64,000 nucleotides of DNA from Gammaproteobacteria bacterium (GCA_022825505.1 JAJDWR010000022.1:15046-79045); one strand, 5' to 3'. Shown: positions 8,600 to 41,986, counted from the stretch's first letter. Notes: generated by a model not told the origin, from the letters alone. A program made the numbers and translations.

Positions 8600-8733
8600 A
8601 CCATCCGCTACCGCCCGTTCCGTTCATCGGAAGGTGTGAGACTTTGGAACGCGTGATCGTGCCCGCCGACTTCAACGCCGGTGACTTCAGCGCCGGTTGA
8701 CAAGTAACGGACCCTGTTCCCACAATAGCCGCA

Positions 8734-8891
8734 GATGGCGCCGTCCAACGGACGGCCAAGAGGGAACCCGGTGAAATGCCGGGGCTGTACCCGCAACTGT
8801 AAGCCGGAAGCTTGCGGCCTGTAGGCCACTGGAGAATTCTCCGGGAAGGCGGCCAAAGAGCGACGATCGGCGAGTCAGGAGACCTGCCATC
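8734..8891 (+). promoter_or_regulatory. cobalamin (B12) riboswitch aptamer
   Basis: Conserved core AGGGAACCCGGTGAAATGCCGGGGCTGTACCCGCAACTGTAA, then GCCACTGG...GGGAAGGC and the B12 box AGTCAGGAGACCTGCC. P1 is closed by GATGGC (8734) and GCCATC (8886). Located in the 456-nt leader of btuB. Confidence 0.85.
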
Positions 8892-9055
8892 GCGTCGTTC
8901 GTTCGTGGGTCGGGCACATTGCCCTCGAACGGGAAAGAGCACGCAGGTGCTCCTTCTCCCTGTAACGACATAGGACCAGGAACCGCGCCCGTAATGGTCG
9001 GCGGGTTCGGAGGTGTCATTACAGTGCGCCCCGGAAGGGGTGCGGGAGGAGATCA

Positions 9056-10924
9056 ATGGAGCGTACTTCCTGGATTATCGGGCTGGTTTCTGCGGCCGTG
9101 TGGACAACCGCCGGCGCGCAGCCGGCTGACAGCAGCGCCCAGTCCCCGGGCGACGGCGAAGAAAGCCCGATGGATACCATCGTCGTCACCGGAACACGAA
9201 TCGAGCAGACCACGGCGGAGGTGGGCTCGACGGTTCGGGTCATCGATGCGGCCGATATCGAAGCCCTCGGGTTCAATCATGCCCTGGATGTACTGGCCAA
9301 TGCTCCAGGGGTGACGGTCAATCAGAACGGATCGTACGGGGGTTCCGCCACGGTGCGTATCCGCGGCGCCTCCAGCGACCAGACGCTGGTCCTGGTGGAC
9401 GGCGTGGCGGTGAACGATGCGTCATCCCCGGGGGGCGGCTTCAATTTCGCCCGCCTGGACACCGAGAACATCGAGCGGATCGAGATTCTCAGCGGCCCTC
9501 AATCGACGCTTTGGGGTACCGATGCCATCGGCGGCGTGGTCTCCATCACCACCAGGCGGCCGGACGAGGGCCTGCGAGGCGCCGTCTTCGGGCAGACGGG
9601 CTCGTTCGGCGCCTTTCGCGGCGGGGCGTCGGTCAGCAATGCGGGTGAAGCCGGAGATTTCCGGCTGGCCGCCACCCAACTGAATACCGATGGCATATCC
9701 AGGGCGGACCAAGCCAATGGTAACGATGAGCAGGACAGCTTCGACGCCCTCACGCTCTCGGCCCGCGGTGGACTCAACCTTCCCGCCGGCGCGCGCATCG
9801 ACGGCAGCGTCCTGTGGAACGACGCGAGTACGGAGTTCGACAGCTTCGTGTTCGGGGCGCAGGGCAACGTCGGCGACGGCGATGAAATCAACGAGACGAA
9901 AGAACGTTCGGCAAATCTGTCGCTGACGGCGCCTCTGCTCGACGGCCGGCTGGACAATCTGCTGTTGGTCGGCCGCTCGGAAATAGACCGCCGCAATTTC
10001 AGCGACGGCGCCCCGAGCTTCGACGCACAGGGCGAGCGCACCCTGTTCCGCTACCAGGGCACCCTGACAATCGATGCGCGCAACACCCTGGCCTTCGGCA
10101 CGGAGCGGGAGGATTCAACCGCCAATGTAAACAGCAGTTCCCTGAATGGCCTGTTCGCACTCTACGAATTGAGGCCGGTGCGGTCCGTGACCCTGTCGGG
10201 GGGCATACGCTCCGACGACCATGAGCGCTTCGGATCGGAAACCACCGGACGTTTCGCCGGGGCGTATCAACCCACGCCCGGCCTGACCCTGCGCGGTAGC
10301 TGGGGACAGGGATTCAAGGCGCCCACCATCTTTCAGACGACGTTTTTCTGTTGCGGCGCGGCCGCCGCCAACGAGGCGCTCAGGCCGGAGCGATCCGATG
10401 GCATCGACATCGGGGCCGAATGGCGTGCCGTGAACGGTCGCGGCCACGTTGGCGTAACGCTCTTCCGGCAGGACACCGAGGATCTGATCGACTTCTCCTT
10501 TGCGGTCGGCGGCTACGAAAACATCTCGGAGGTCGAATCCAGGGGCGTCGAGGTTTCAGCAGGGTGGAACGTGACGCGAACGCTCACTGTGGCGGCGGAC
10601 TATGCCTACATCGATGCATCGGAGGGCGACGGTACGCCCCTGCGCCGCATGCCCAGGCATTCGGGCGACCTCTTGCTGGGCTTCGACCCCGGCGGCCCGC
10701 TCTCGGGTTCCGTTGTGCTGCGTTACAACGGTAGCGAACCGAACAACGACGGCAGCGATCTCGGCGATTGGACACGAGTGGACATCAACGCGCGCTACGA
10801 TCTGACCGACAGCTTCGAGGTGTTCGGGCGCATCGAGAACCTGCTCGATGCGCATTACCAGCAGATCCTCGGGTACGGCACACCGGGAAGATCGGGCTTC
10901 GTGGGCGCGCGGTGGCGCTACTGA
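9056..10924 (+). CDS. btuB: TonB-dependent vitamin B12/cobalamin outer-membrane receptor
   Basis: 622 aa with a signal peptide. TonB-box/plug region (DTIVVTGTR, RIEILSGPQSTLWG) and C-terminal GFVGARWRY. Directly follows the B12 riboswitch. Confidence 0.85.
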   Translation: MERTSWIIGLVSAAVWTTAGAQPADSSAQSPGDGEESPMDTIVVTGTRIEQTTAEVGSTVRVIDAADIEALGFNHALDVLANAPGVTVNQNGSYGGSATVRIRGASSDQTLVLVDGVAVNDASSPGGGFNFARLDTENIERIEILSGPQSTLWGTDAIGGVVSITTRRPDEGLRGAVFGQTGSFGAFRGGASVSNAGEAGDFRLAATQLNTDGISRADQANGNDEQDSFDALTLSARGGLNLPAGARIDGSVLWNDASTEFDSFVFGAQGNVGDGDEINETKERSANLSLTAPLLDGRLDNLLLVGRSEIDRRNFSDGAPSFDAQGERTLFRYQGTLTIDARNTLAFGTEREDSTANVNSSSLNGLFALYELRPVRSVTLSGGIRSDDHERFGSETTGRFAGAYQPTPGLTLRGSWGQGFKAPTIFQTTFFCCGAAAANEALRPERSDGIDIGAEWRAVNGRGHVGVTLFRQDTEDLIDFSFAVGGYENISEVESRGVEVSAGWNVTRTLTVAADYAYIDASEGDGTPLRRMPRHSGDLLLGFDPGGPLSGSVVLRYNGSEPNNDGSDLGDWTRVDINARYDLTDSFEVFGRIENLLDAHYQQILGYGTPGRSGFVGARWRY

Positions 10925-18743: not shown

Positions 18744-19733
18744 ATGATCCGCATCAGCGCGTTTTTCTTCCTGGCGATGCCCCTGGCGGCAAACGCTCAT
18801 CACTCGGTGGCCGCATTCTACGAACCGGATGCCACAAGCGAGGTCGCCGGGACCATCACCGAAGTCAACTGGGTGAATCCGCACATCAGTTTCTCGGTGG
18901 AATCGATCAACGACGACAACGAAGTGGAAACCTGGACGATCGAATCGGGTCCCGCAAACGGCATGGCCAGAAACGGGATCACCCGGGATGTGCTCGAGGT
19001 GGGAACGGACGTCACCGTGGTCGGACGGCCCTCAAGTCGCGGCCAGATGGCATTGTACGCATCATCCGTGCGCCGCGCGGACGGTGAGAGCGTTGCCTTG
19101 CGCGGCGTGGGCTCGCGCCCCGACCTGCTTCAGGCCTCGGCGGGGCCGGAGCCTGAAGGGATCTTCCGCGTCTGGTCCCGCGGGAGGGCCTTTGGCGATC
19201 ACGTAAACAACTCGCCCACCGGCTTCGAGCTCCCTTACACGCCGGCGGCCCAGGCAGCCCGGGACCAATACGACCCGGTCACCGACGATACCGCCCTGAA
19301 GTGCATACAACAGGGTATGCCCGGCATCATGGACAACCCCTACCCCATCGAGTTCGTTGCAGACGGTGACGATATCGAACTGCGGTTGGAAGAGTGGTCG
19401 GTGGTGCGCACGATCCACATGTCCGGCTACGACGATCCCGAGAGCCAGGTGTTTACCCGCCACGGCTATTCGGTCGGCCGCTGGGAGGGCAACACGCTCA
19501 TCGTGGAGACCTCGAAAATCGACTGGCCGTTCTTCGACGATGTCGGGACACCGCAGAGCATGGCGGTGGATATCGTCGAGCGCTTCGCGCTGAGTCCGGA
19601 CGCAAGCCGCCTCGACTACGAGATCACGGTCACCGATCCGGCGACCTTCACGGAGACCATCTCGCTGGACGGTTACTGGAACTGGGTTCCGGGCGAGGAA
19701 GTCAAGACCTACCAGTGCACGCCCTGGCTCTGA
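18744..19733 (+). CDS. secreted protein, uncharacterised AxA|HHS...NPH family (DUF6152-like N-terminal domain), paralogue 1
   Basis: Signal peptide MIRISAFFFLAMPLAANA followed by HHS. NPH lies 29 residues after the first His. Shares a C-terminal module (GYSVGRWEGNTLIVETS, VERFALS, TVTDPATFTE, YQC) with three other ORFs in this window. Confidence 0.7.
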   Translation: MIRISAFFFLAMPLAANAHHSVAAFYEPDATSEVAGTITEVNWVNPHISFSVESINDDNEVETWTIESGPANGMARNGITRDVLEVGTDVTVVGRPSSRGQMALYASSVRRADGESVALRGVGSRPDLLQASAGPEPEGIFRVWSRGRAFGDHVNNSPTGFELPYTPAAQAARDQYDPVTDDTALKCIQQGMPGIMDNPYPIEFVADGDDIELRLEEWSVVRTIHMSGYDDPESQVFTRHGYSVGRWEGNTLIVETSKIDWPFFDDVGTPQSMAVDIVERFALSPDASRLDYEITVTDPATFTETISLDGYWNWVPGEEVKTYQCTPWL

Positions 19734-19785
19734 ACCAAATCATCTCCGTCGCGTCTAATCGGATAAATGGCTGACGGTCGAGCTG

Positions 19786-20196
19786 ATGTCCCGATTCAAT
19801 TCGCTTGCTGATTCACCCTGGGCTTTCTGGGCAGGTTCTCTGCTCTGGCTGCCCGCAGGGGTAGTGCTGACGGCACTTTTTCGCTTTCCCGATCAACTGT
19901 TCAGCCCCATGGGCTGGATGATGCTGCTTGGCGGCCTGGCCTCGTTGATATTCGTCGCCCCGTGCGGACTGCCGCTGGCGCTCGGATGCCGCGAGCTCTG
20001 GAAGCGCGGTTACCGCCAGGCAGCGTGGGCCTCGATGGTCGTGCTGGGGGTGGTTTCCGTTGGCGCAACGTTGCTCGCCGGGCTCCTTGGCCCGATCGCG
20101 ATCGCGGTATACGCGATCATCCTCAGCCTGCCGGTGTGGCTTGCCGTCGGTGTGGTCAGCGTCCTGCAGCGCCGGCGGGCAGAGTCCGCCGGCTAA
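19786..20196 (+). CDS. small integral membrane protein, unknown function
   Basis: 136 aa with about four hydrophobic helices. No recognisable motif. Confidence 0.45.
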   Translation: MSRFNSLADSPWAFWAGSLLWLPAGVVLTALFRFPDQLFSPMGWMMLLGGLASLIFVAPCGLPLALGCRELWKRGYRQAAWASMVVLGVVSVGATLLAGLLGPIAIAVYAIILSLPVWLAVGVVSVLQRRRAESAG

Positions 20197-20256
20197 GAGG
20201 CTGCGCCGCAGGAAATCACGGCGGCAAACTCGCTCTCGTCCGCCGCGTCGACCGCT

Positions 20257-21123
20257 CTATTCGGCGGTCAGCGACTCGTAGACCCCCTGAACGTTGAGCG
20301 CCCGCCAGGCGTCGTACTGCGCCCAATCGCTGTAGTCTTCCATGAGTACGGACGCCTGGGCCTCCTCCAGGCTCATGCCGGCATCCACCGCCTCGCTGAC
20401 GGCGGCCAGGAGTTCTTCCAGGTAGCCGGTCGTATCGTCCACGTCGGCCTTGGTCCCTACCGGGCCGTGGCCGGGGGCCATGATGTCGTAGTCCACCGTG
20501 GACTGCAGGTTTTGGTTGGCCTCGATCCATGACGTGATCGGACCCCACCCGGACATGGTCTGGAACGGCACGCGCTGGACATTGACGAAGTCCACGGCGA
20601 ACACCGCACGCTCGTCGGGGAAATGGATGATCGAGGAGTCGTTGCTGTGACTCGGGAGCGCGTGGATCATCTCCACGGTCTTGCCGCCCAGCGTCACGCT
20701 GGTGCTGTCGGAGTAGGTGGTATCCGGCGCGCGGACTTCGGCGAAGACTTCGTTGCCCTCCTCCGCGGCGAGGTTGACCACCGTGTTGTCGTGGCCCACG
20801 AATTCGGCGGTGTCCTCGAACACGGCCCCGCCCGAGGCGTGGTCATCGTGGTAGTGGCTGTACAGCACGTACCGCACCGGGACGCCGAAGCGCTCATCCA
20901 GCTCACCCTTCAGCCACGTCGCAAAGTCCGTGCTGATGGGATCGGTGAGAATGATGCCCTCGTCCGTCACCAGGAATACGTTGTGATGGGCGTTGTTCGT
21001 GGCCCGGTAGAGGTCCCCCGTGATGTTGACGATCTCCCGGAAGGGCTCATCCTGCGCCAGTGTCATTGGCGTAGCGGCCAGTGCCAGGACGCCCGCTGCA
21101 AATGCGGTCAGTTTGATATTCAT
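20257..21123 (-). CDS. secreted metallo-beta-lactamase-fold hydrolase
   Basis: Start at ATG 21123 (MNIKLTAFAAGVLALAATPMTLAQ signal peptide). HxHxDH motif (SHYHDDHASG). Confidence 0.75.
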   Translation of the reverse strand: MNIKLTAFAAGVLALAATPMTLAQDEPFREIVNITGDLYRATNNAHHNVFLVTDEGIILTDPISTDFATWLKGELDERFGVPVRYVLYSHYHDDHASGGAVFEDTAEFVGHDNTVVNLAAEEGNEVFAEVRAPDTTYSDSTSVTLGGKTVEMIHALPSHSNDSSIIHFPDERAVFAVDFVNVQRVPFQTMSGWGPITSWIEANQNLQSTVDYDIMAPGHGPVGTKADVDDTTGYLEELLAAVSEAVDAGMSLEEAQASVLMEDYSDWAQYDAWRALNVQGVYESLTAE

Positions 21124-21391
21124 GCCGTCTCCTCCTGTATTCCAAGCTGCGGATAGTTCTTCTTCGAGACTCCGATCCGAGTTTAACGCGTCCCCGCGCG
21201 CGCACAAACCCGAAATGCGGCTCGGGCCGCGATCAGAGCCGGCGGTGAACGCCGAATACAGCATGGACCGGCCACCCGGCGCCGGGTGTGTGCCATGGCG
21301 GACAGGGATTCGCCGTGACACTCCGGTGACAATTCGAGCGGCCCGATGCCTAACCTAGGACGCCCCGATACCGAACGCGCGGCCTGCATAC

Positions 21392-33536: not shown

Positions 33537-34592
33537 ATGTACTATTCAGGCGCAATCAGGACCCTCACCTTACTATGGCTCTGGCTCCTTGCGGGCACCG
33601 CATTCGCACACCACTCGCTGCTCACTTACGATCCCGGCGAGATCGTCGAATTCGAGGGTGAAGTCACGAACGTGTTCTGGCGCAATCCCCACGTGCAGCT
33701 GACGGTCAGGACCACGGACGAGGACGGCGGCGAGCGGGTCTGGACCGCCGAAGGTTCTCCCGTCAACGCGATGGAGCGTGCGGGAATTACCGAGGCGGTG
33801 GTTTCCGTGGGGGAACGCGTCAGGGTGACGGCAAACCCTTCCAGGCTTGTCGAGGATGAGGCCAGACTCGTGCTGCTTACCCTGACCGATGGACAGTCGT
33901 TCGTGTTGAACACGGAGGCGGCCGCAGCGCTCGGCCTTCCGGCCTATACGTCACAGGCTGTCCCGGCAGGCGGCGCCGCGGTGGCCGGCGCCGAGGGCTA
34001 TCCCGAGGCTACCGGCATCTTTCGAGTCTGGACGAATCGCGACCGGCACTGGGTTGCGCGCGATGTCCGGGAGTGGTGGGCCAGGACCCACCCTCTGACG
34101 GAATCGGCCCAGGCCATGCTGGATGCGTGGGACCCGGTGGCGGACGATCCTGCAAGACAGTGCATTCCGGCTGGCATGCCCGAAGCCATGCTCATGCCCT
34201 TTCCGATCGAATTCGTCGATCAGGGCGACATCCTTGTTCTGAATATAGAAGAGTGGGACAACTCGCGCACGATTCACCTGAATGCGGATCCTGACGCGGA
34301 CATGCCTCCCTCACGGCTCGGCTATTCCGTCGGACGCTGGGAGGGCGACACGCTGATCGTGGAAACCAGCCGCATCGACTATCCTTACTTCAACGACCAG
34401 GGCATTCCGCAAAGCGAGGCTCTTGCGATGGTCGAGCGATTCACGCTCAGCGAAAACGGCACGAAGCTGGACTGGACGGCTACGGTGACCGATCCGGAAA
34501 CGTTCACGGAACCAATCATCATGCCGGAGTTCCACTGGGACTGGATCCCCGGGCAGGAGATCAAGCCCTACAACTGCGTCGTAGCCGAGTAA
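33537..34592 (+). CDS. secreted protein, AxA|HHS...NPH family, paralogue 2
   Basis: Signal peptide ...LLWLWLLAGTAFA followed by HHS, with NPH 28 residues on. Motifs GYSVGRWEGDTLIVETS, VERFTLS, TVTDPETFTEP, YNC. Alternative ATG at 33510. Confidence 0.7.
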   Translation: MYYSGAIRTLTLLWLWLLAGTAFAHHSLLTYDPGEIVEFEGEVTNVFWRNPHVQLTVRTTDEDGGERVWTAEGSPVNAMERAGITEAVVSVGERVRVTANPSRLVEDEARLVLLTLTDGQSFVLNTEAAAALGLPAYTSQAVPAGGAAVAGAEGYPEATGIFRVWTNRDRHWVARDVREWWARTHPLTESAQAMLDAWDPVADDPARQCIPAGMPEAMLMPFPIEFVDQGDILVLNIEEWDNSRTIHLNADPDADMPPSRLGYSVGRWEGDTLIVETSRIDYPYFNDQGIPQSEALAMVERFTLSENGTKLDWTATVTDPETFTEPIIMPEFHWDWIPGQEIKPYNCVVAE

Positions 34593-34665: not shown

Positions 34666-35313
34666 TCAGTCTGCCGCGAAGCAGTAGAACAGCCCGTCGC
34701 CGCCCGTACCGATCAGGTCTTCCTGACTGCAGCCGCGGCTGCTGTGCACCGCATTCCAGGACGCGCTCGGTCCACCCAGGCGATCATGGTGGCCTACCAT
34801 GGCCCGGCCCTCGCCGTTACTGGTCCAATTGTTGCAGGTGGTGATGTCGGCGGCACCGGGCGCTGCCCGGCCCATGGAGTCCGATCCGGTCAGAATGTCG
34901 TGCCGGTTGGGCTGGTCGCCCGCGCCGGCCACTTCGTTGCCGTTCTCGTCCACGGCGGTGGGCTTGCGGATGTTGTTGCGGTCCTCGTGGAGGCCGTCGA
35001 TGTCCCAGGCGATGTATACGCCGTTGGCGTTGTACCAGGGCCCGTCGCCGATGCGGTCGCGCGCATTGACCTGCGGTGCGCCCATCCCGGCGGCCTGGCT
35101 CAGGTAAGCGCGCCAGGCTGCATCGCCCCGCCCTACGGCGGAGGCGAGTGCCTGGCAGTGCGCATCGGCGCCCTCGAGCCCTCCCAGATTTGCCCCGTCG
35201 CCCGGACCGACGCTGGTTATGAAGAAACTCATGGGCGGCTGATCCTGGGCGATACCCAGCATCGAAACCGCAGCCAATGCCATTCCGGCCAAAAGAACTC
35301 TTGTCGCTTTCAT
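34666..35313 (-). CDS. secreted endostatin/DUF1554-like (C-type-lectin-fold-like) protein
   Basis: Signal peptide MKATRVLLAGMALAAVSMLGIAQD. Then SFFITSVGPGDGANLGGLEGADAHCQALA and AWRAYLS, which I recall as the DUF1554/endostatin-like pattern. Four Cys. Confidence 0.4.
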   Translation of the reverse strand: MKATRVLLAGMALAAVSMLGIAQDQPPMSFFITSVGPGDGANLGGLEGADAHCQALASAVGRGDAAWRAYLSQAAGMGAPQVNARDRIGDGPWYNANGVYIAWDIDGLHEDRNNIRKPTAVDENGNEVAGAGDQPNRHDILTGSDSMGRAAPGAADITTCNNWTSNGEGRAMVGHHDRLGGPSASWNAVHSSRGCSQEDLIGTGGDGLFYCFAAD

Positions 35314-35415
35314 TCTCATCTCCTTCGCTTGTACTTCATCCCCCGGCGTCCGCGGCGCAGGAAATTGCGGCAGTGAATTCGCCATCAAGGTTTCCTGCCC
35401 ATCGGACTCCAAAGG

Positions 35416-38342: not shown

Positions 38343-39374
38343 TCAGCGTCCCAGTTCGGGGTGCGTGCAATCGTATTGGCGGGGCGCCTGGTCGGAGGCA
38401 GCGAATGTTCGGGTATCCGTTACGGGTGCGGTGTAATAGAGCGCATCCTCGCTGACGATGGTCAGTTCGAAGGTGTCGCCCGCCTGCCCCAGCGTCAGCC
38501 GTTCCACGGTGTGGAGCTGGTTGCTGTGCGGCATTCCGGGATGCTGCGCCAGCATCCCCGCCTCGTAGCCGACGGTATCGATCACCAGCGTCGAGCCTTC
38601 GTACCGGCCGATGGAGTGCCCCAGGACGCGATCCTCGAGATCCGCGGGATGTTCGTCCATGTCGAGGCGGACCTCCCGTACGGCGTCCATCCATTCGTGC
38701 CGAATGACGACGCGGTCCCCGGTCTGTTCGATCTCGGTGAGGTCGTTATTGCCCCAAAGCCGCCGGATGCTCACCGGGCTGCAGGTCAGGGCGGGATCGT
38801 CCAGCACCGGATCGTACCGTGCCAGGGCCTCGCGGCCGGCGTCGTTGAGCACGCCGGCCAGACGGTTGGGACCGCCGAGTTGCGGACCGCCGCCGCCCCC
38901 ACCGCCGCCGCCGGACCGCTGCCAGACCCGGCTGAAGTCGGGCACGTCCGCCGGAACGGCCACACGGGCAGCGCGGGGGGCCGAAGCCGGTACTACCGCA
39001 TCGAACGTGTCGCCGAGTGCGATCACACGGCCGTCCGCAAACTCCGCGGTTTCAAAGTAGCACTCGGCGTCGTGACGCCTCGCCGCAAATCCCTGCACGA
39101 CGATGTCGTCGCCGGGCCGGAAGACGTCCCGCGTCCACCCGCGCCTCATCAGGCCGTTGGATCCCGACATCTCGCAGTCCCAGGTCACTACCGATCCGTC
39201 GTCCCCGGTGACGTCGATCAACAGCCGGGCATGCGGATTGATGAAGCGGAACAGCTTGACCGTCCCGCTGACGGTGACACCGACGTTGCGGTCGAAGTGA
39301 TAGTCGTTGGAGTGGTGGGCGTGGGCGGTCCCCGCGACCATGCCTGCCACGAATGCTGCGGTGATCCGGTTCAT
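38343..39374 (-). CDS. secreted protein, AxA|HHS...NPH family, paralogue 3 (poly-Gly linker)
   Basis: Signal peptide MNRITAAFVAGMVAGTAHA followed by HHS, NPH at +29, a run of nine Gly. Motifs LGHSIGRYEGSTLVIDT, VERLTL, YDC. Confidence 0.7.
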   Translation of the reverse strand: MNRITAAFVAGMVAGTAHAHHSNDYHFDRNVGVTVSGTVKLFRFINPHARLLIDVTGDDGSVVTWDCEMSGSNGLMRRGWTRDVFRPGDDIVVQGFAARRHDAECYFETAEFADGRVIALGDTFDAVVPASAPRAARVAVPADVPDFSRVWQRSGGGGGGGGGPQLGGPNRLAGVLNDAGREALARYDPVLDDPALTCSPVSIRRLWGNNDLTEIEQTGDRVVIRHEWMDAVREVRLDMDEHPADLEDRVLGHSIGRYEGSTLVIDTVGYEAGMLAQHPGMPHSNQLHTVERLTLGQAGDTFELTIVSEDALYYTAPVTDTRTFAASDQAPRQYDCTHPELGR

Positions 39375-39529
39375 GATTCTCCCCTCCGTGTATTTTCGAA
39401 TCGCCTGGGAATCAAGGGCCGCAGAACGATTCTACCCCAGCCCGGGTTTCCGTCGCTGGCGCGGTTGAATCCCCAATGCTATGTTGGGCATCCTGACCAA
39501 CCTGCTCGAGTTCCGGGGAGAGAAGTAAC

Positions 39530-40327
39530 ATGAAAAGAGCCGGACTGACACGAATTCTCGCATCCCTGACCGTACTTTCGCTCCTGCCGGCGGGAACCGT
39601 ACTGGCGCAGAGCGTCTTCACTCACGCTCATTACCGGGTTCCGGAGGGGCAGCAGGAGGCGGCGGCGGAATGGTACAACCGCGTGCTGGGCGGAGAACCT
39701 GGTGAAATCGGGCCGGGGCCGGGCATCCGCCACCCCAACGGCTTTGTCGGCACCATGCCCAACGAGGGCATGGCGGGGGACGGCGCGGTCAATGTCCTCG
39801 ATCACATTGGAATTACCGTGCCCGATGTGCAGGCCGCCGTGGACCTGATCCGGGAAATCGGCGGGGAAATACGGACCGAACCGCAGGAAGGCGTCACCGC
39901 GCCCGTGATCGCCCACGTCACGGATCCCTGGGGCGGCCGCTTCGAACTGCTGGAAGACCCCGACTATCCGGGTATCAACCACGCGCATATCTTCGCCTCC
40001 GATGCGGACGCCACACGGGACTGGTTCCTGCAGGTGTTCGGCGGCGAATTGAACGAGGCACGCGGTCAGGGCCGTTTTCACACCATTCTCTACGACAACG
40101 TCTGGATCCACATCAGCCAGACGCCGGAGGACGCACCGAGGATGTCGAGCCGGTTCCGGGCCGCCGATCACATCGGTTTCAGGGTCCCGTCGCTGGACGA
40201 ATTCCGCGAGACCCTGCGGGCGTCCGGGTACGAACCCTATCTCGAACGCCCCAATCCTCCAGGCGCGGACCTCATGTTCCTGGAGGGTCCTGACGGACTG
40301 CACATCGAGATGACGGAACCCCTGTGA
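39530..40327 (+). CDS. secreted two-domain VOC (glyoxalase/bleomycin-resistance/dioxygenase) family protein
   Basis: Signal peptide MKRAGLTRILASLTVLSLLPAGTVLAQS. Two repeats of the VOC pattern (LDHIGITVPD...DPWGGRFELL and ADHIGFRVPS...GPDGLHIEM). Confidence 0.65.
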   Translation: MKRAGLTRILASLTVLSLLPAGTVLAQSVFTHAHYRVPEGQQEAAAEWYNRVLGGEPGEIGPGPGIRHPNGFVGTMPNEGMAGDGAVNVLDHIGITVPDVQAAVDLIREIGGEIRTEPQEGVTAPVIAHVTDPWGGRFELLEDPDYPGINHAHIFASDADATRDWFLQVFGGELNEARGQGRFHTILYDNVWIHISQTPEDAPRMSSRFRAADHIGFRVPSLDEFRETLRASGYEPYLERPNPPGADLMFLEGPDGLHIEMTEPL

Positions 40328-40337
40328 GAGGCAACCA

Positions 40338-41444
40338 ATGAAACGCTGGCACGTATCGCTTTTCGCAGCCGTCGGCACAGTTGGCCTTTTCGGCCTTGCC
40401 GACGCCCATCACTCCCGGGGCAATTTCGATCTCGACGACGTGATCGAACTCCACGGCACGGTCACCGAATACACCTGGCGAAATCCGCATACCTTCGTGA
40501 CCCTGGACGTCGAGAACGATGCCGGCGAGGTGGAAGAATGGCTGCTGGAACTCAACTCCATCGCCGTGCTCACCGGTACCGGGTGGACGCGCGACACCAT
40601 CCGGGTGGGCGACAGCGTGACCGTGTTCGGCAATCCGGACAACGACCGCAGCAAGAAATTCTTCTTCTCCAACTACTTCGTATTGCCCGACGGCAGCCGC
40701 ATGGTGTCGGCGCCGAACTATTCGCGCGGCGTGCCCATTCAGCGCCCGCCCGAGCGGGAACTGGACACCACCGCGAGTTCCGGCGACTTCACCGGCATCT
40801 GGCGGCGGGAAGGCGGCATGGGCGGCGGCATGGGGATGGGCGGCGGCGGTGCACCCGCGGCCGGACCTCCGCCGGCAGGCGCCAACATCTCCCTCGGAAA
40901 CCAGACGCCTGCCATGGGTCTGTCGGTTACGGCGCGAGGTCAGGCGGAGCTGGACAACTGGGACGTGCGCGACAACCCGTGGTTCCGGTGCGAGCCGAGA
41001 ACGCTTCCCGGGGTCGTCAGCGGCACCCAGGAGATTCTCCGGCCGACCGAAGACCGAATCGCTTTCCGCTACGAAATCCTGGAGGTGGAGCGTACCGTCC
41101 ACCTGGGCCTGACCGGCCATCCTTCCGATGTCGAGCCCTCCCACCTGGGCCATTCCATCGGCTGGTTCGAGGACGAAAGCCTGGTGGTGGATACGGCGTT
41201 GTTCTCCCCCGCGGACTGGGGCATCGGCGCCGGGGTGCCCTCCAGCGACCTCAAGCACGTGGTGGAGCGATACACCCTGCTCGATGGCGGCAGGCGCATG
41301 CAGGTTGACTACACCTTCGAGGATCCGGTCTACCTTGCGGAACCGGTGAACATGTCAGCCACGTTCTTTGTGGATCCGGGGTACCCATGGGCGGAGTACG
41401 ACTGCGATCCGCATGCCAGCAGCCGGCATCTGGATGTCGAATAG
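40338..41444 (+). CDS. secreted protein, AxA|HHS...NPH family, paralogue 4 (Gly/Met-rich linker)
   Basis: Signal peptide ...GTVGLFGLADA followed by HHS, NPH at +28, linker GGMGGGMGMGGGG. Motifs LGHSIGWFEDESLVVDT, VERYTLL, YDC. Lies 10 nt after the VOC gene. Confidence 0.7.
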   Translation: MKRWHVSLFAAVGTVGLFGLADAHHSRGNFDLDDVIELHGTVTEYTWRNPHTFVTLDVENDAGEVEEWLLELNSIAVLTGTGWTRDTIRVGDSVTVFGNPDNDRSKKFFFSNYFVLPDGSRMVSAPNYSRGVPIQRPPERELDTTASSGDFTGIWRREGGMGGGMGMGGGGAPAAGPPPAGANISLGNQTPAMGLSVTARGQAELDNWDVRDNPWFRCEPRTLPGVVSGTQEILRPTEDRIAFRYEILEVERTVHLGLTGHPSDVEPSHLGHSIGWFEDESLVVDTALFSPADWGIGAGVPSSDLKHVVERYTLLDGGRRMQVDYTFEDPVYLAEPVNMSATFFVDPGYPWAEYDCDPHASSRHLDVE

Positions 41445-41468
41445 GAGACTGATTGGAGGAGAACCAAG

Positions 41469-41903
41469 ATGGCGAGATTATTGACTGCCGTAGCGGCTCT
41501 GGCGCTGACGCCGCTCCTGGTGGCGCAGGATTCCAGCGAGGGTTTCGTGCGCATCAACCCGGAGGAACTGGAGTGGACCGTACGGCCCGGAGGCTCCGAG
41601 TTCGTCTACCTGCACGGCGACTCGCAGGCCGAAGGGCTTTACATCATGCGCAACAAGTTCACGCCGGGAGCCTTTTCCGCGCCTCACTACCACGATCAGG
41701 ACCGTTTCATCACGGTCATCTCCGGCGTCTGGCATACCGGCACCGATGCCAGCGGCGACCGGGACATCACCGTTCCGCTGGGCCCGGGAAGCTACATGAT
41801 GCACCCGGCCGGCGCGGTTCACTACGACGGCGCGAAGGAAGAAGAAGTGATCGTTGAGATCCGGGGCATGGGCCCGGTGCAAACGATCTTCCTGGAGGAG
41901 TGA
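41469..41903 (+). CDS. secreted cupin-domain protein
   Basis: Signal peptide MARLLTAVAALALTPLLVAQD. Single cupin barrel with HYHDQDRF...G.WH...PAGAVHYD-type His-containing motifs. Confidence 0.6.
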   Translation: MARLLTAVAALALTPLLVAQDSSEGFVRINPEELEWTVRPGGSEFVYLHGDSQAEGLYIMRNKFTPGAFSAPHYHDQDRFITVISGVWHTGTDASGDRDITVPLGPGSYMMHPAGAVHYDGAKEEEVIVEIRGMGPVQTIFLEE

Positions 41904-41986
41904 GCCTGGCGATGCCGGCCGGGACCCCGCGGCGCCCGCAGGCGGGTGCCCGTTCCGCGAACGGTCATCGATTCAGTCCCTGAGCG

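Follow-up and report, generated by a model that had tools for sequence, protein, structure and literature searches.

A compact cluster of genes for exported proteins

We have analyzed a stretch of 64,000 nucleotides from a Gammaproteobacteria bacterium (GCA_022825505.1 JAJDWR010000022.1:15046-79045), referred to below as the window, and have focussed on a compact cluster of four genes at positions 38,343 to 41,903, counted from its first letter. Two of the products (HHS3 and HHS4) belong to what a first-pass annotation of the sequence had called the HHS family. This corresponds to Pfam DUF6152 (PF19649) in a long form, i.e., with a modelled OB-fold N-domain followed by an unannotated calycin-like beta-barrel. 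The other two are a two-domain protein of the VOC superfamily and a cupin. The locus is composed as follows:

38343-39374, minus strand: HHS3, long-form DUF6152 protein, 343 aa (open reading frame; Pfam E 4.3e-22; Shine-Dalgarno sequence)
39375-39529, no strand: divergent 155-nt putative promoter region between HHS3 and VOC (alignment of ten clade-A intergenic regions)
39530-40327, plus strand: exported two-domain VOC protein, 265 aa (Pfam Glyoxalase in two stretches; alignment of 13 homologues)
40338-41444, plus strand: HHS4, long-form DUF6152 protein, 368 aa (open reading frame, Pfam, AlphaFold2 models, motif statistics)
41469-41903, plus strand: exported single-domain cupin, 144 aa (Pfam Cupin_7 and Cupin_2; 120 homologues)
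41931-41950, no strand: GC-rich inverted repeat without a T-run, candidate shared terminator hairpin (read from the sequence)

The four open reading frames, their coordinates and the gaps of 10 nt between VOC and HHS4 and of 24 nt between HHS4 and cupin had all been proposed by the first-pass annotation and were confirmed by the gene calls, third-position base composition and ribosome-binding sites. The GC content at third codon positions is 0.77-0.82 in the four frames, against an overall GC of 0.65, which is typical for real genes here, and every start codon is the first ATG, with a GGAG-type Shine-Dalgarno sequence 6-10 nt upstream. Moreover, an independent gene call on a public contig carrying an identical cupin gave the same four product lengths. 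The spacing of VOC, HHS4 and cupin is indeed operon-like, with the three genes on one strand, short gaps and an order that is kept across genomes (see below). The cluster is flanked upstream by korAB (2-oxoacid:ferredoxin oxidoreductase) and downstream by glycoside hydrolase genes (GH16, GH43 and a weak GH26 match).

In the 155-nt divergent spacer, the ten intergenic regions from clade A (the clade of the window) share an extended -10-like block, TGCTATGTT (39477-39485), and CTGGCGCGG (39456-39464), both of which we read as serving the VOC operon, as well as GATTCTACCCCA (39428-39439; TAGAAT on the reverse strand), which we read as serving HHS3. A simple promoter consensus scan of this region found nothing, so that the role of these blocks is something we infer. 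We also considered that the divergent promoter might contain a shared operator responsive to metals, and rejected this, as only promoter-like blocks were seen. Consensus scans detected neither an internal promoter nor an internal terminator within VOC-HHS4-cupin, which is weak evidence. The inverted repeat lies between the cupin gene and the convergent GH16 gene, and a terminator scan made no call on it. No RNA element of Rfam was found in or near the cluster.

Export leaders are a property of the families

The leaders and the first processed terminus were predicted from the sequence at these positions:

39318-39374, minus strand: HHS3 leader, residues 1-19
39309-39317, minus strand: predicted mature N-terminus of HHS3, His-His-Ser
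39530-39607, plus strand: VOC leader, residues 1-26
40338-40406, plus strand: HHS4 leader, residues 1-23
41469-41525, plus strand: cupin leader, residues 1-19

Sec-type signal peptides had been claimed for all four products, and the prediction held. In each case, a basic n-region is followed by a hydrophobic core scoring 2.15-2.47 on the Kyte-Doolittle scale (11 residues) and by a site of the A-x-A type, with cleavage predicted between AHA and HHS in HHS3, VLA and QS in VOC, ADA and HHS in HHS4 and LVA and QD in the cupin. Inspection of the four leaders revealed neither a twin-arginine motif nor a lipobox in any of them. By a crude hydropathy test, leaders were kept in 97 of 111 VOC, 116 of 119 cupin and 229 of 263 long DUF6152 relatives (few of them twin-arginine-like, again by a crude test), and all 13 aligned VOC homologues (46-82% identity) have one. 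Because they are conserved across relatives, the leaders are a family property and not artefacts of wrong start codons, a possibility that the first-pass annotation had itself raised. On the other hand, its statement that an all-periplasmic set of VOC and cupin proteins is unusual was weakened, since marine Gammaproteobacteria commonly have exported proteins of these VOC and cupin types. We found 133 clusters (at 90% identity) of the exported VOC family and 265 of the exported cupin family.

The VOC protein and the cupin

The metalloprotein-type folds expected for the four exported products were likewise recovered by Pfam (VOC, cupin and DUF6152). The VOC protein matches Glyoxalase (PF00903) with 75.3 bits in two stretches, is also matched by Glyoxalase_4 and Glyoxalase_6, and has the paired beta-alpha-beta-beta-beta modules of the superfamily. 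Over the 13 homologues, the invariant residues include H32, H34, H92 and E139 in the first half and H151, H214, H258 and E260 in the second. Among solved structures, glyoxalase I enzymes come closest (E 1e-13 to 6e-10). In the comparison with their His/Glu/His/Glu metal tetrad, His, His and the last Glu are kept and the first Glu aligns with a Gly. The NCBIfam models of glyoxalase I score below their cutoffs (TIGR00068, 44.5 bits against 120; PRK10291, 23.6 against 246), and so does that of catechol 2,3-dioxygenase (TIGR03211, 19.9 bits against 320.2). We predict, therefore, a VOC-superfamily metalloenzyme related to glyoxalase I which, because of the His/His/Glu set in each half, is not a canonical glyoxalase I. 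A periplasmic glyoxalase I/II pair formed by the VOC protein and the metallo-beta-lactamase-fold (MBL) protein of the window was also considered and rejected. The window MBL resembles B1 metallo-beta-lactamases and not glyoxalase II, and the MBLs that adjoin VOC genes belong to different MBL families, which speaks against such a pairing.

The cupin scores above threshold with two Pfam models (Cupin_7, 33.8 bits against 27; Cupin_2, 28.4 against 27.2) and shows both cupin motifs, save that the position of the motif-1 Glu is taken by an invariant Arg79. Over 120 homologues, the invariant residues are H73-x-H75, R79, H112 and P113-x-G115-x-x-H118. The sole match among solved structures was 3cjx, whose function is unassigned, at a marginal E of 0.0018.

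A two-part architecture in the DUF6152 proteins

Apart from HHS3 and HHS4, the window contains two further long-form paralogues outside the cluster. The elements referred to in this section are located as follows:

39075-39338, minus strand: Pfam DUF6152 match in HHS3, residues 13-100
40398-40649, plus strand: Pfam DUF6152 match in HHS4, residues 21-104
40407-40415, plus strand: His-His-Ser motif of HHS4 (alignment)
40482-40490, plus strand: Asn-Pro-His (NPH) motif of HHS4 (alignment)
about 40809-40886, plus strand: Gly/Met-rich linker of HHS4 with the Met-Gly repeat GGMGGGMGMGGGG (sequence and alignment)
40890-41441, plus strand: beta-barrel C-domain of HHS4 (AlphaFold2 model)
18744-19733, plus strand: HHS1, third long-form DUF6152 paralogue (Pfam)
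33537-34592, plus strand: HHS2, fourth long-form DUF6152 paralogue (Pfam)

All four proteins score well above the gathering threshold of 27 bits (HHS3 78.5, HHS4 85.5, HHS1 69.6 and HHS2 65.2 bits; E 1e-18 to 1e-24). The Pfam model, of 98 positions, covers the N-domain only (ca. the first 85-100 residues), and the remaining ca. 230 residues of the window proteins, including a barrel of ca. 185 aa, were matched by no Pfam or NCBIfam model. With about 330-370 aa, none of the four is of the single-domain form (ca. 100-140 aa). Short members of the family have 126-140 aa (typically ca. 130), and the HHS and NPH motifs are common to short and long forms. A repeat search merely returned echoes of the paralogous coding sequences. 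The family is very large: a profile search retrieved 28,211 clusters at 50% identity with E of at most 1e-3, 15,248 at 1e-10 and 1,164 at 1e-30. It has neither a solved structure nor a proposed function, and the literature that we searched contained no mention of DUF6152, never combined "histidine brace" with "OB-fold" and, for the Rariloculaceae, offered unrelated ecology only.

In the alignments (HHS4 numbering), the invariant residues are His24-His25-Ser26, Asn49-Pro50-His51, Trp155, Cys218, Arg252, Gly271, Ser273, Asp329 and Cys356. Gly271 and Ser273 flank His272, itself nearly invariant, and the three belong to a Gly-His-Ser-x-Gly motif. Among 263 long-form members, HHS falls within the first 70 residues in 239 (median 23 residues from the start), it is preceded at -1 by Ala (81%), Gly (11%) or Ser (7%), i.e., 99% together, and at -3 by Ala (66%), Val (16%) or Ser (9%), 91% together, and NPH follows at exactly +25 in 86%. 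Since the residues at -1 and -3 fit the signal peptidase I rule, the mature proteins are predicted to begin with His-His-Ser. The Met-Gly linker is less widespread. It was found in 57 of the 263, mostly HHS4 orthologues (MGM repeats), and HHS3 has a pure Gly run instead.

The AlphaFold2 model of HHS4 has a pLDDT of 88.6, with low confidence only at residues 22-24 (pLDDT <50) and in the linker (161-178). By fold comparison, the modelled N-domain is an OB fold, its best solved matches being anticodon domains of lysyl-tRNA synthetases and SSB proteins, and the C-terminal part is modelled as a roughly ten-stranded up-and-down barrel. Modelled alone, the barrel reached a pLDDT of 93.8 and gave weak matches of the calycin/FABP type (UnaG, avidins; E at least 0.01). 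When its profile was compared with solved structures, the long-form family gave marginal OB-fold matches only (E >0.1). Transfer of a function from the fold searches, with the whole model or with the C-domain, was rejected, as these retrieved only generic OB folds and weak FABP/avidin-type barrels.

Conservation of the gene order

To follow the cluster in other genomes we used HHS4 as an anchor in one genome per species (61 loci), and VOC as an anchor in public contigs and one metagenome scan. At two loci of lower GC (L082 and L132) the gene content was taken from profile hits and not from gene picking by third-position GC. The order VOC, HHS4, cupin on one strand was found in nine of the 61 loci, all from Ca. 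Rariloculaceae and unclassified Gammaproteobacteria, with HHS4 identities of 78-98%, and also at loci L071, L072, L078 and L143. An identical copy of the cluster is present in ERZ23491399. Upstream of the trio in the nine genomes there are usually HHS3 and korAB. The trio remains intact where the upstream or the downstream flank differs (L001 and L014; L072 among the metagenome contigs).

A sister clade (clade B; VOC identity 72-76%) has a divergent HHS3-like gene followed by VOC and cupin, 8-66 nt apart, and no HHS4. HHS3 is thus the divergent partner of VOC in clades A and B, and we read HHS3, VOC and cupin as the conserved core. Because the sister clade has this core without HHS4, the latter was probably inserted between VOC and cupin in the clade of the window, although the direction of change is deduced from the comparison. 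Some clade-B loci (L073, L087, L089 and L091) have a small bactofilin-domain gene between the HHS3-like gene and VOC, and a LysR regulator and a CBM9/DUF5916 protein after the cupin, which are absent at the cluster in the window. Conservation of the gene order beyond this genome, on which the first-pass annotation had made its case depend, therefore extends to nine species-level genomes, metagenome contigs and, as a core, the sister clade; however, it is shallow, and distant orthologues lack the partners.

More distant VOCs (45-65% identity) often have an adjacent DUF6152 gene, long or short and from other subfamilies. It can be on either side and in divergent or convergent orientation, and some of these VOCs lack such a neighbour. 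Of the loci of the VOC family, 25 remained after dereplication at 95% and with at least 1.2 kb on either side, and in 12 of these a DUF6152 gene was located at most 750 bp away. The density of DUF6152 genes in the more remote parts of these loci, one per 16.4 kb, gives a chance expectation of ca. 19% (binomial P ca. 0.001, a value that is indicative only, as the 25 loci are not phylogenetically independent).

GH16 and GH43 are directly downstream of the cluster in the window and at L001, L002, L003, L011, L078 and L143, and one could think that the cluster assists the glycan-degradation locus next to it (GH16, GH43, GH26 and a sugar transporter), for instance with an oxidative activity directed at polysaccharides of algae or of a host. 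In addition, lytic polysaccharide monooxygenases (LPMOs) have a processed N-terminal His as their hallmark (PMC10952591). However, GH genes are absent beside the trio at L004-L006, L014, L071 and L072 and at the clade-B loci with readable flanks, so that the link to the glycan locus, beside which the first-pass annotation had placed the cluster, is not conserved. Besides, the GH16 gene is not co-transcribed with the cupin gene, as the two are convergent, and no carbohydrate-active enzyme, sulfatases apart, is among the 25 commonest neighbour families of DUF6152 genes. We consider this explanation very improbable.

Neighbours and separate parts of the DUF6152 proteins

We also looked at the immediate neighbours of DUF6152 genes in general. 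The 127 neighbours include 12 short DUF6152 genes, eight MBL-fold genes, three sulfatases and three cytochromes c, and in individual loci PQQ and molybdenum dehydrogenases are found beside DUF6152 genes. The neighbours that recur are therefore other exported enzymes and not metal transporters. In the window itself, HHS1 is near an exported MBL-fold gene (20257-21123, minus strand), and the same MBL family turns up again next to long DUF6152 genes of Acidobacteriota and of Alpha- and Gammaproteobacteria (loci from Euryhalocaulis, Porticoccaceae, Pseudomonadales and Vicinamibacterales). This part of the window (18744-21321) holds HHS1, a small four-helix membrane open reading frame (19786-20196) and the MBL-fold gene together, the start of the latter being probably at 21123 and not at 21321. 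In one acidobacterial locus (L050) there are about ten DUF6152-type genes in 20 kb, interleaved with MBL-fold genes, and in two from Terriglobia (L049 and L052) two molybdenum hydroxylase genes flank the DUF6152 genes.

The two parts of the long form also occur as separate genes. In sphingomonad plasmids, a DUF6152 gene for ca. 130 aa (with its own leader, AHHS and NPH) adjoins a gene for a barrel protein of ca. 270 aa. The latter likewise has a leader, together with both cysteines, the Trp motif and GHSIG. Such split pairs are found in a Croceibacterium atlanticum plasmid (L139, 6548-10747; the Croceibacterium pair is WP_046903031.1 and WP_053833712.1) and in a Sphingobium plasmid (L141, 5785-8313), in the latter repeated in tandem and with monooxygenases and TauD nearby. 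They are near TonB-dependent receptors, which were seen solely in these sphingomonad plasmid loci. In one lineage the two parts are fused and in another they are encoded by adjacent genes, which argues that they would function jointly. At another locus (L070, 1626-3564) the barrel domain stands behind a different N-domain (CarboxypepD_reg), in two tandem genes ca. 1 kb from a VOC orthologue. In the plasmid collection, nine records contain DUF6152, all of them sphingomonad or rhizobial megaplasmids, and none of the nine has a metal-resistance context.

These surroundings bring up the possibility that the DUF6152 proteins are themselves oxidative enzymes, with a copper histidine brace formed by His1 of the mature protein and His51 on the OB domain and a small hydrophobic substrate held by the barrel, the VOC protein and the cupin carrying out the next steps. 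PQQ and molybdenum dehydrogenases, monooxygenases and c-type cytochromes among the neighbours agree with this, the strong expansion of paralogues would suit diversified substrate pockets, and the His/His/Glu triads of the VOC protein resemble those of extradiol dioxygenases. An invariant, processed N-terminal His together with a further invariant His is the signature of the histidine brace (PMC10952591). However, an OB barrel is unlike any known histidine-brace scaffold, and there is neither a copper context nor a reductant partner that is consistently adjacent, so an enzymatic role for these proteins seems unlikely to us.

Other features of the window

The sole Rfam match in the window is a cobalamin riboswitch (RF00174, 127 bits) at 8719-8906 on the plus strand, upstream of an open reading frame of 622 aa (9056-10924). 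On the minus strand, 34666-35412 codes for an exported protein of 248 aa with a weak, sub-threshold match to DUF1554 and to the endostatin-like proteins LenA/LenB of Leptospira; the gene is conserved beside korB in related genomes.

A possible role for the cluster

From the genes, their export signals, folds, invariant motifs and pattern of synteny we infer co-transcription, metal binding, a partnership between the products and some chemistry. Our preferred explanation, to which we give a probability of roughly 0.4, is that of a lineage-restricted periplasmic module in which the DUF6152 proteins are metal-binding partners of exported metalloenzymes. VOC, HHS4 and cupin would form one transcription unit, with HHS3 read divergently from the shared promoter region, and all four products would be exported via Sec and act in the periplasm. 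There, the VOC protein and the cupin (the latter with a His site) would be metalloenzymes transforming some small molecule. HHS3 and HHS4 would be two-part accessory proteins in which cleavage by signal peptidase exposes His-His-Ser on the OB-fold domain. An amino-terminal His, or a His at position 2, is a strong chelator of Cu(II) and Ni(II), and this terminus, with Asn-Pro-His 25 residues further on, may make up a site that binds Cu(II), Ni(II) or Zn(II). The disulphide-braced calycin-like barrel, with its Gly-His-Ser-x-Gly, would add a second conserved surface. DUF6152 would thus partner the VOC protein, and probably the cupin, and might act by delivering the metal, by buffering it or by presenting a ligand. 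About half of the VOC family has a DUF6152 neighbour while only a small fraction of the DUF6152 genes has a VOC neighbour. The pattern of association fits a generic accessory for several exported metalloenzyme families.

Several observations weigh against such a module. VOC orthologues of 55-73% identity are found without the partners, cupin relatives of 56-57% identity have neither partner adjoining, and HHS4 relatives of 60-69% identity are located between tpiA-secG and nuoABC, without VOC or cupin (L008-L010 and L043). Some of the adjacency between VOC and DUF6152 would be chance, because DUF6152 genes are dense in these genomes, and the VOC loci counted above are, as stated, related to one another. 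In addition, the 25 commonest Pfam families of the 127 neighbours include neither metal transporters nor copper-handling families, and no operator-like palindrome (MerR-, Fur- or Zur-like) was seen in the conserved promoter region. The site between tpiA-secG and nuoABC is in itself an odd, housekeeping one for exported proteins.

Part of this would be explained if there were no functional system at all, only unrelated exported proteins whose genes happen to adjoin in a single lineage of family rank, which the very high copy number of DUF6152 would have made easier. Each component occurs alone in relatives of 55-73% identity, HHS4 is missing from the sister clade, the density of the family makes a chance neighbour for nearly one VOC gene in five, and neither VOC nor cupin is among the 25 commonest Pfam families of the 127 neighbours. 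What makes this improbable in our opinion is that the trio, with its short intergenic gaps, survives rearrangement of the flanks on both sides, that the adjacency of VOC and cupin is found in two clades with cupin identities down to 56-65%, and that the DUF6152 genes at the 12 VOC loci belong to varied subfamilies and have varied orientations.

Another alternative is a metal-homeostasis module for capture, buffering or resistance (copper, zinc or nickel), with the DUF6152 proteins as carriers similar to ZinT, CopC or PCuAC. The His-His terminus with NPH, the Met-Gly repeats of the HHS4 linker and a calycin-like barrel as in ZinT would all be in keeping with it. Yet the 25 commonest neighbour families include no P-type ATPase, RND or CopCD-type partner, the palindromes of MerR, Fur or Zur type are lacking in the conserved promoter, the plasmid copies are found in catabolic and not in resistance contexts, and many paralogues per genome would be unusual for a homeostasis protein. 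We regard it as decidedly unlikely. The first-pass annotation had left the choice at an oxidative, detoxification or metal-handling system, which is too broad to be refuted.

If the terminus does bind metal, it would provide a new scaffold for histidine-brace or N-terminal metal-site chemistry and could be relevant to the way in which the correct metal reaches enzymes whose folding takes place in the periplasm. If it binds none, the cluster would be an ordinary lineage-specific set of exported proteins. In a family of this size, with four copies in a 64-kb window, the anatomy of the proteins and their reproducible enzyme partners (the VOC family and an MBL-fold family) give an entry point.

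Comparison with known systems

The VOC protein shares with glyoxalase I (E. coli GlxI, 1f9z; the two-domain maize GLX1, 6bnn/5d7z) the paired modules and keeps the positions of His5, His74 and Glu122. Unlike these enzymes, it has a signal peptide and a predicted periplasmic location, a Gly at the position of Glu56 and a second, C-terminal His/His/Glu set. The cupin can be compared with MncA and CucA, reportedly periplasmic cupins of cyanobacteria, and with 3cjx. Like them it is a small exported cupin with His ligands (H73, H75 and H118) and the second motif PxGxxH, and it differs in being a single domain of 144 aa, in its Sec-type leader and in Arg79 replacing the motif-1 Glu.

For the DUF6152 proteins, ZinT (YodA) is a periplasmic protein that combines a His-rich terminus with a calycin fold, and DUF6152 would resemble it in having a calycin-type barrel and a His-rich processed N-terminus, with which it would carry metal for a partner. 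However, ZinT was not returned by any sequence or fold match, the OB domain is extra, and the many paralogues are beside enzymes and not beside transporters of the ZnuABC type.

Histidine-brace proteins are defined by a mature N-terminal His and a further His, with T-shaped coordination of copper, and site B of PmoB uses three histidines (PMC10952591). The HHS proteins are like the members of this group (LPMOs AA9-AA17, PmoB site B, CopC, PmoF1, YcnI and X325/Bim1) in export, in a His that is predicted to be exposed by cleavage as the first mature residue, and in a further invariant His, for which the alignment offers His25 and His51 as candidates (residues 22-24 of the model having pLDDT <50). 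They are unlike them in their scaffold, modelled as an OB fold and not immunoglobulin- or cupredoxin-like, nor any other of the known folds (LPMO, CopC, PmoB, YcnI), and in the lack of copper-handling neighbours. The relation is one of analogy and not of membership. It is doubtful that DUF6152 and its barrel represent a periplasmic metalloprotein family that is new and very large, with a histidine brace made from the His-His terminus and the NPH histidine on an OB fold, a scaffold without precedent for such a site, and working as oxidative catalysts or as dedicated metal-delivery partners of Sec-exported VOC, cupin and MBL-fold enzymes. The families themselves are catalogued, but the fused architecture, its split-gene counterpart, the statistics of the processed terminus and the association with VOC and MBL genes appear to be undescribed. 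Compared with the short form, the proteins of the window share HHS and NPH and add to them a Gly-rich linker and a barrel of ca. 185 aa.

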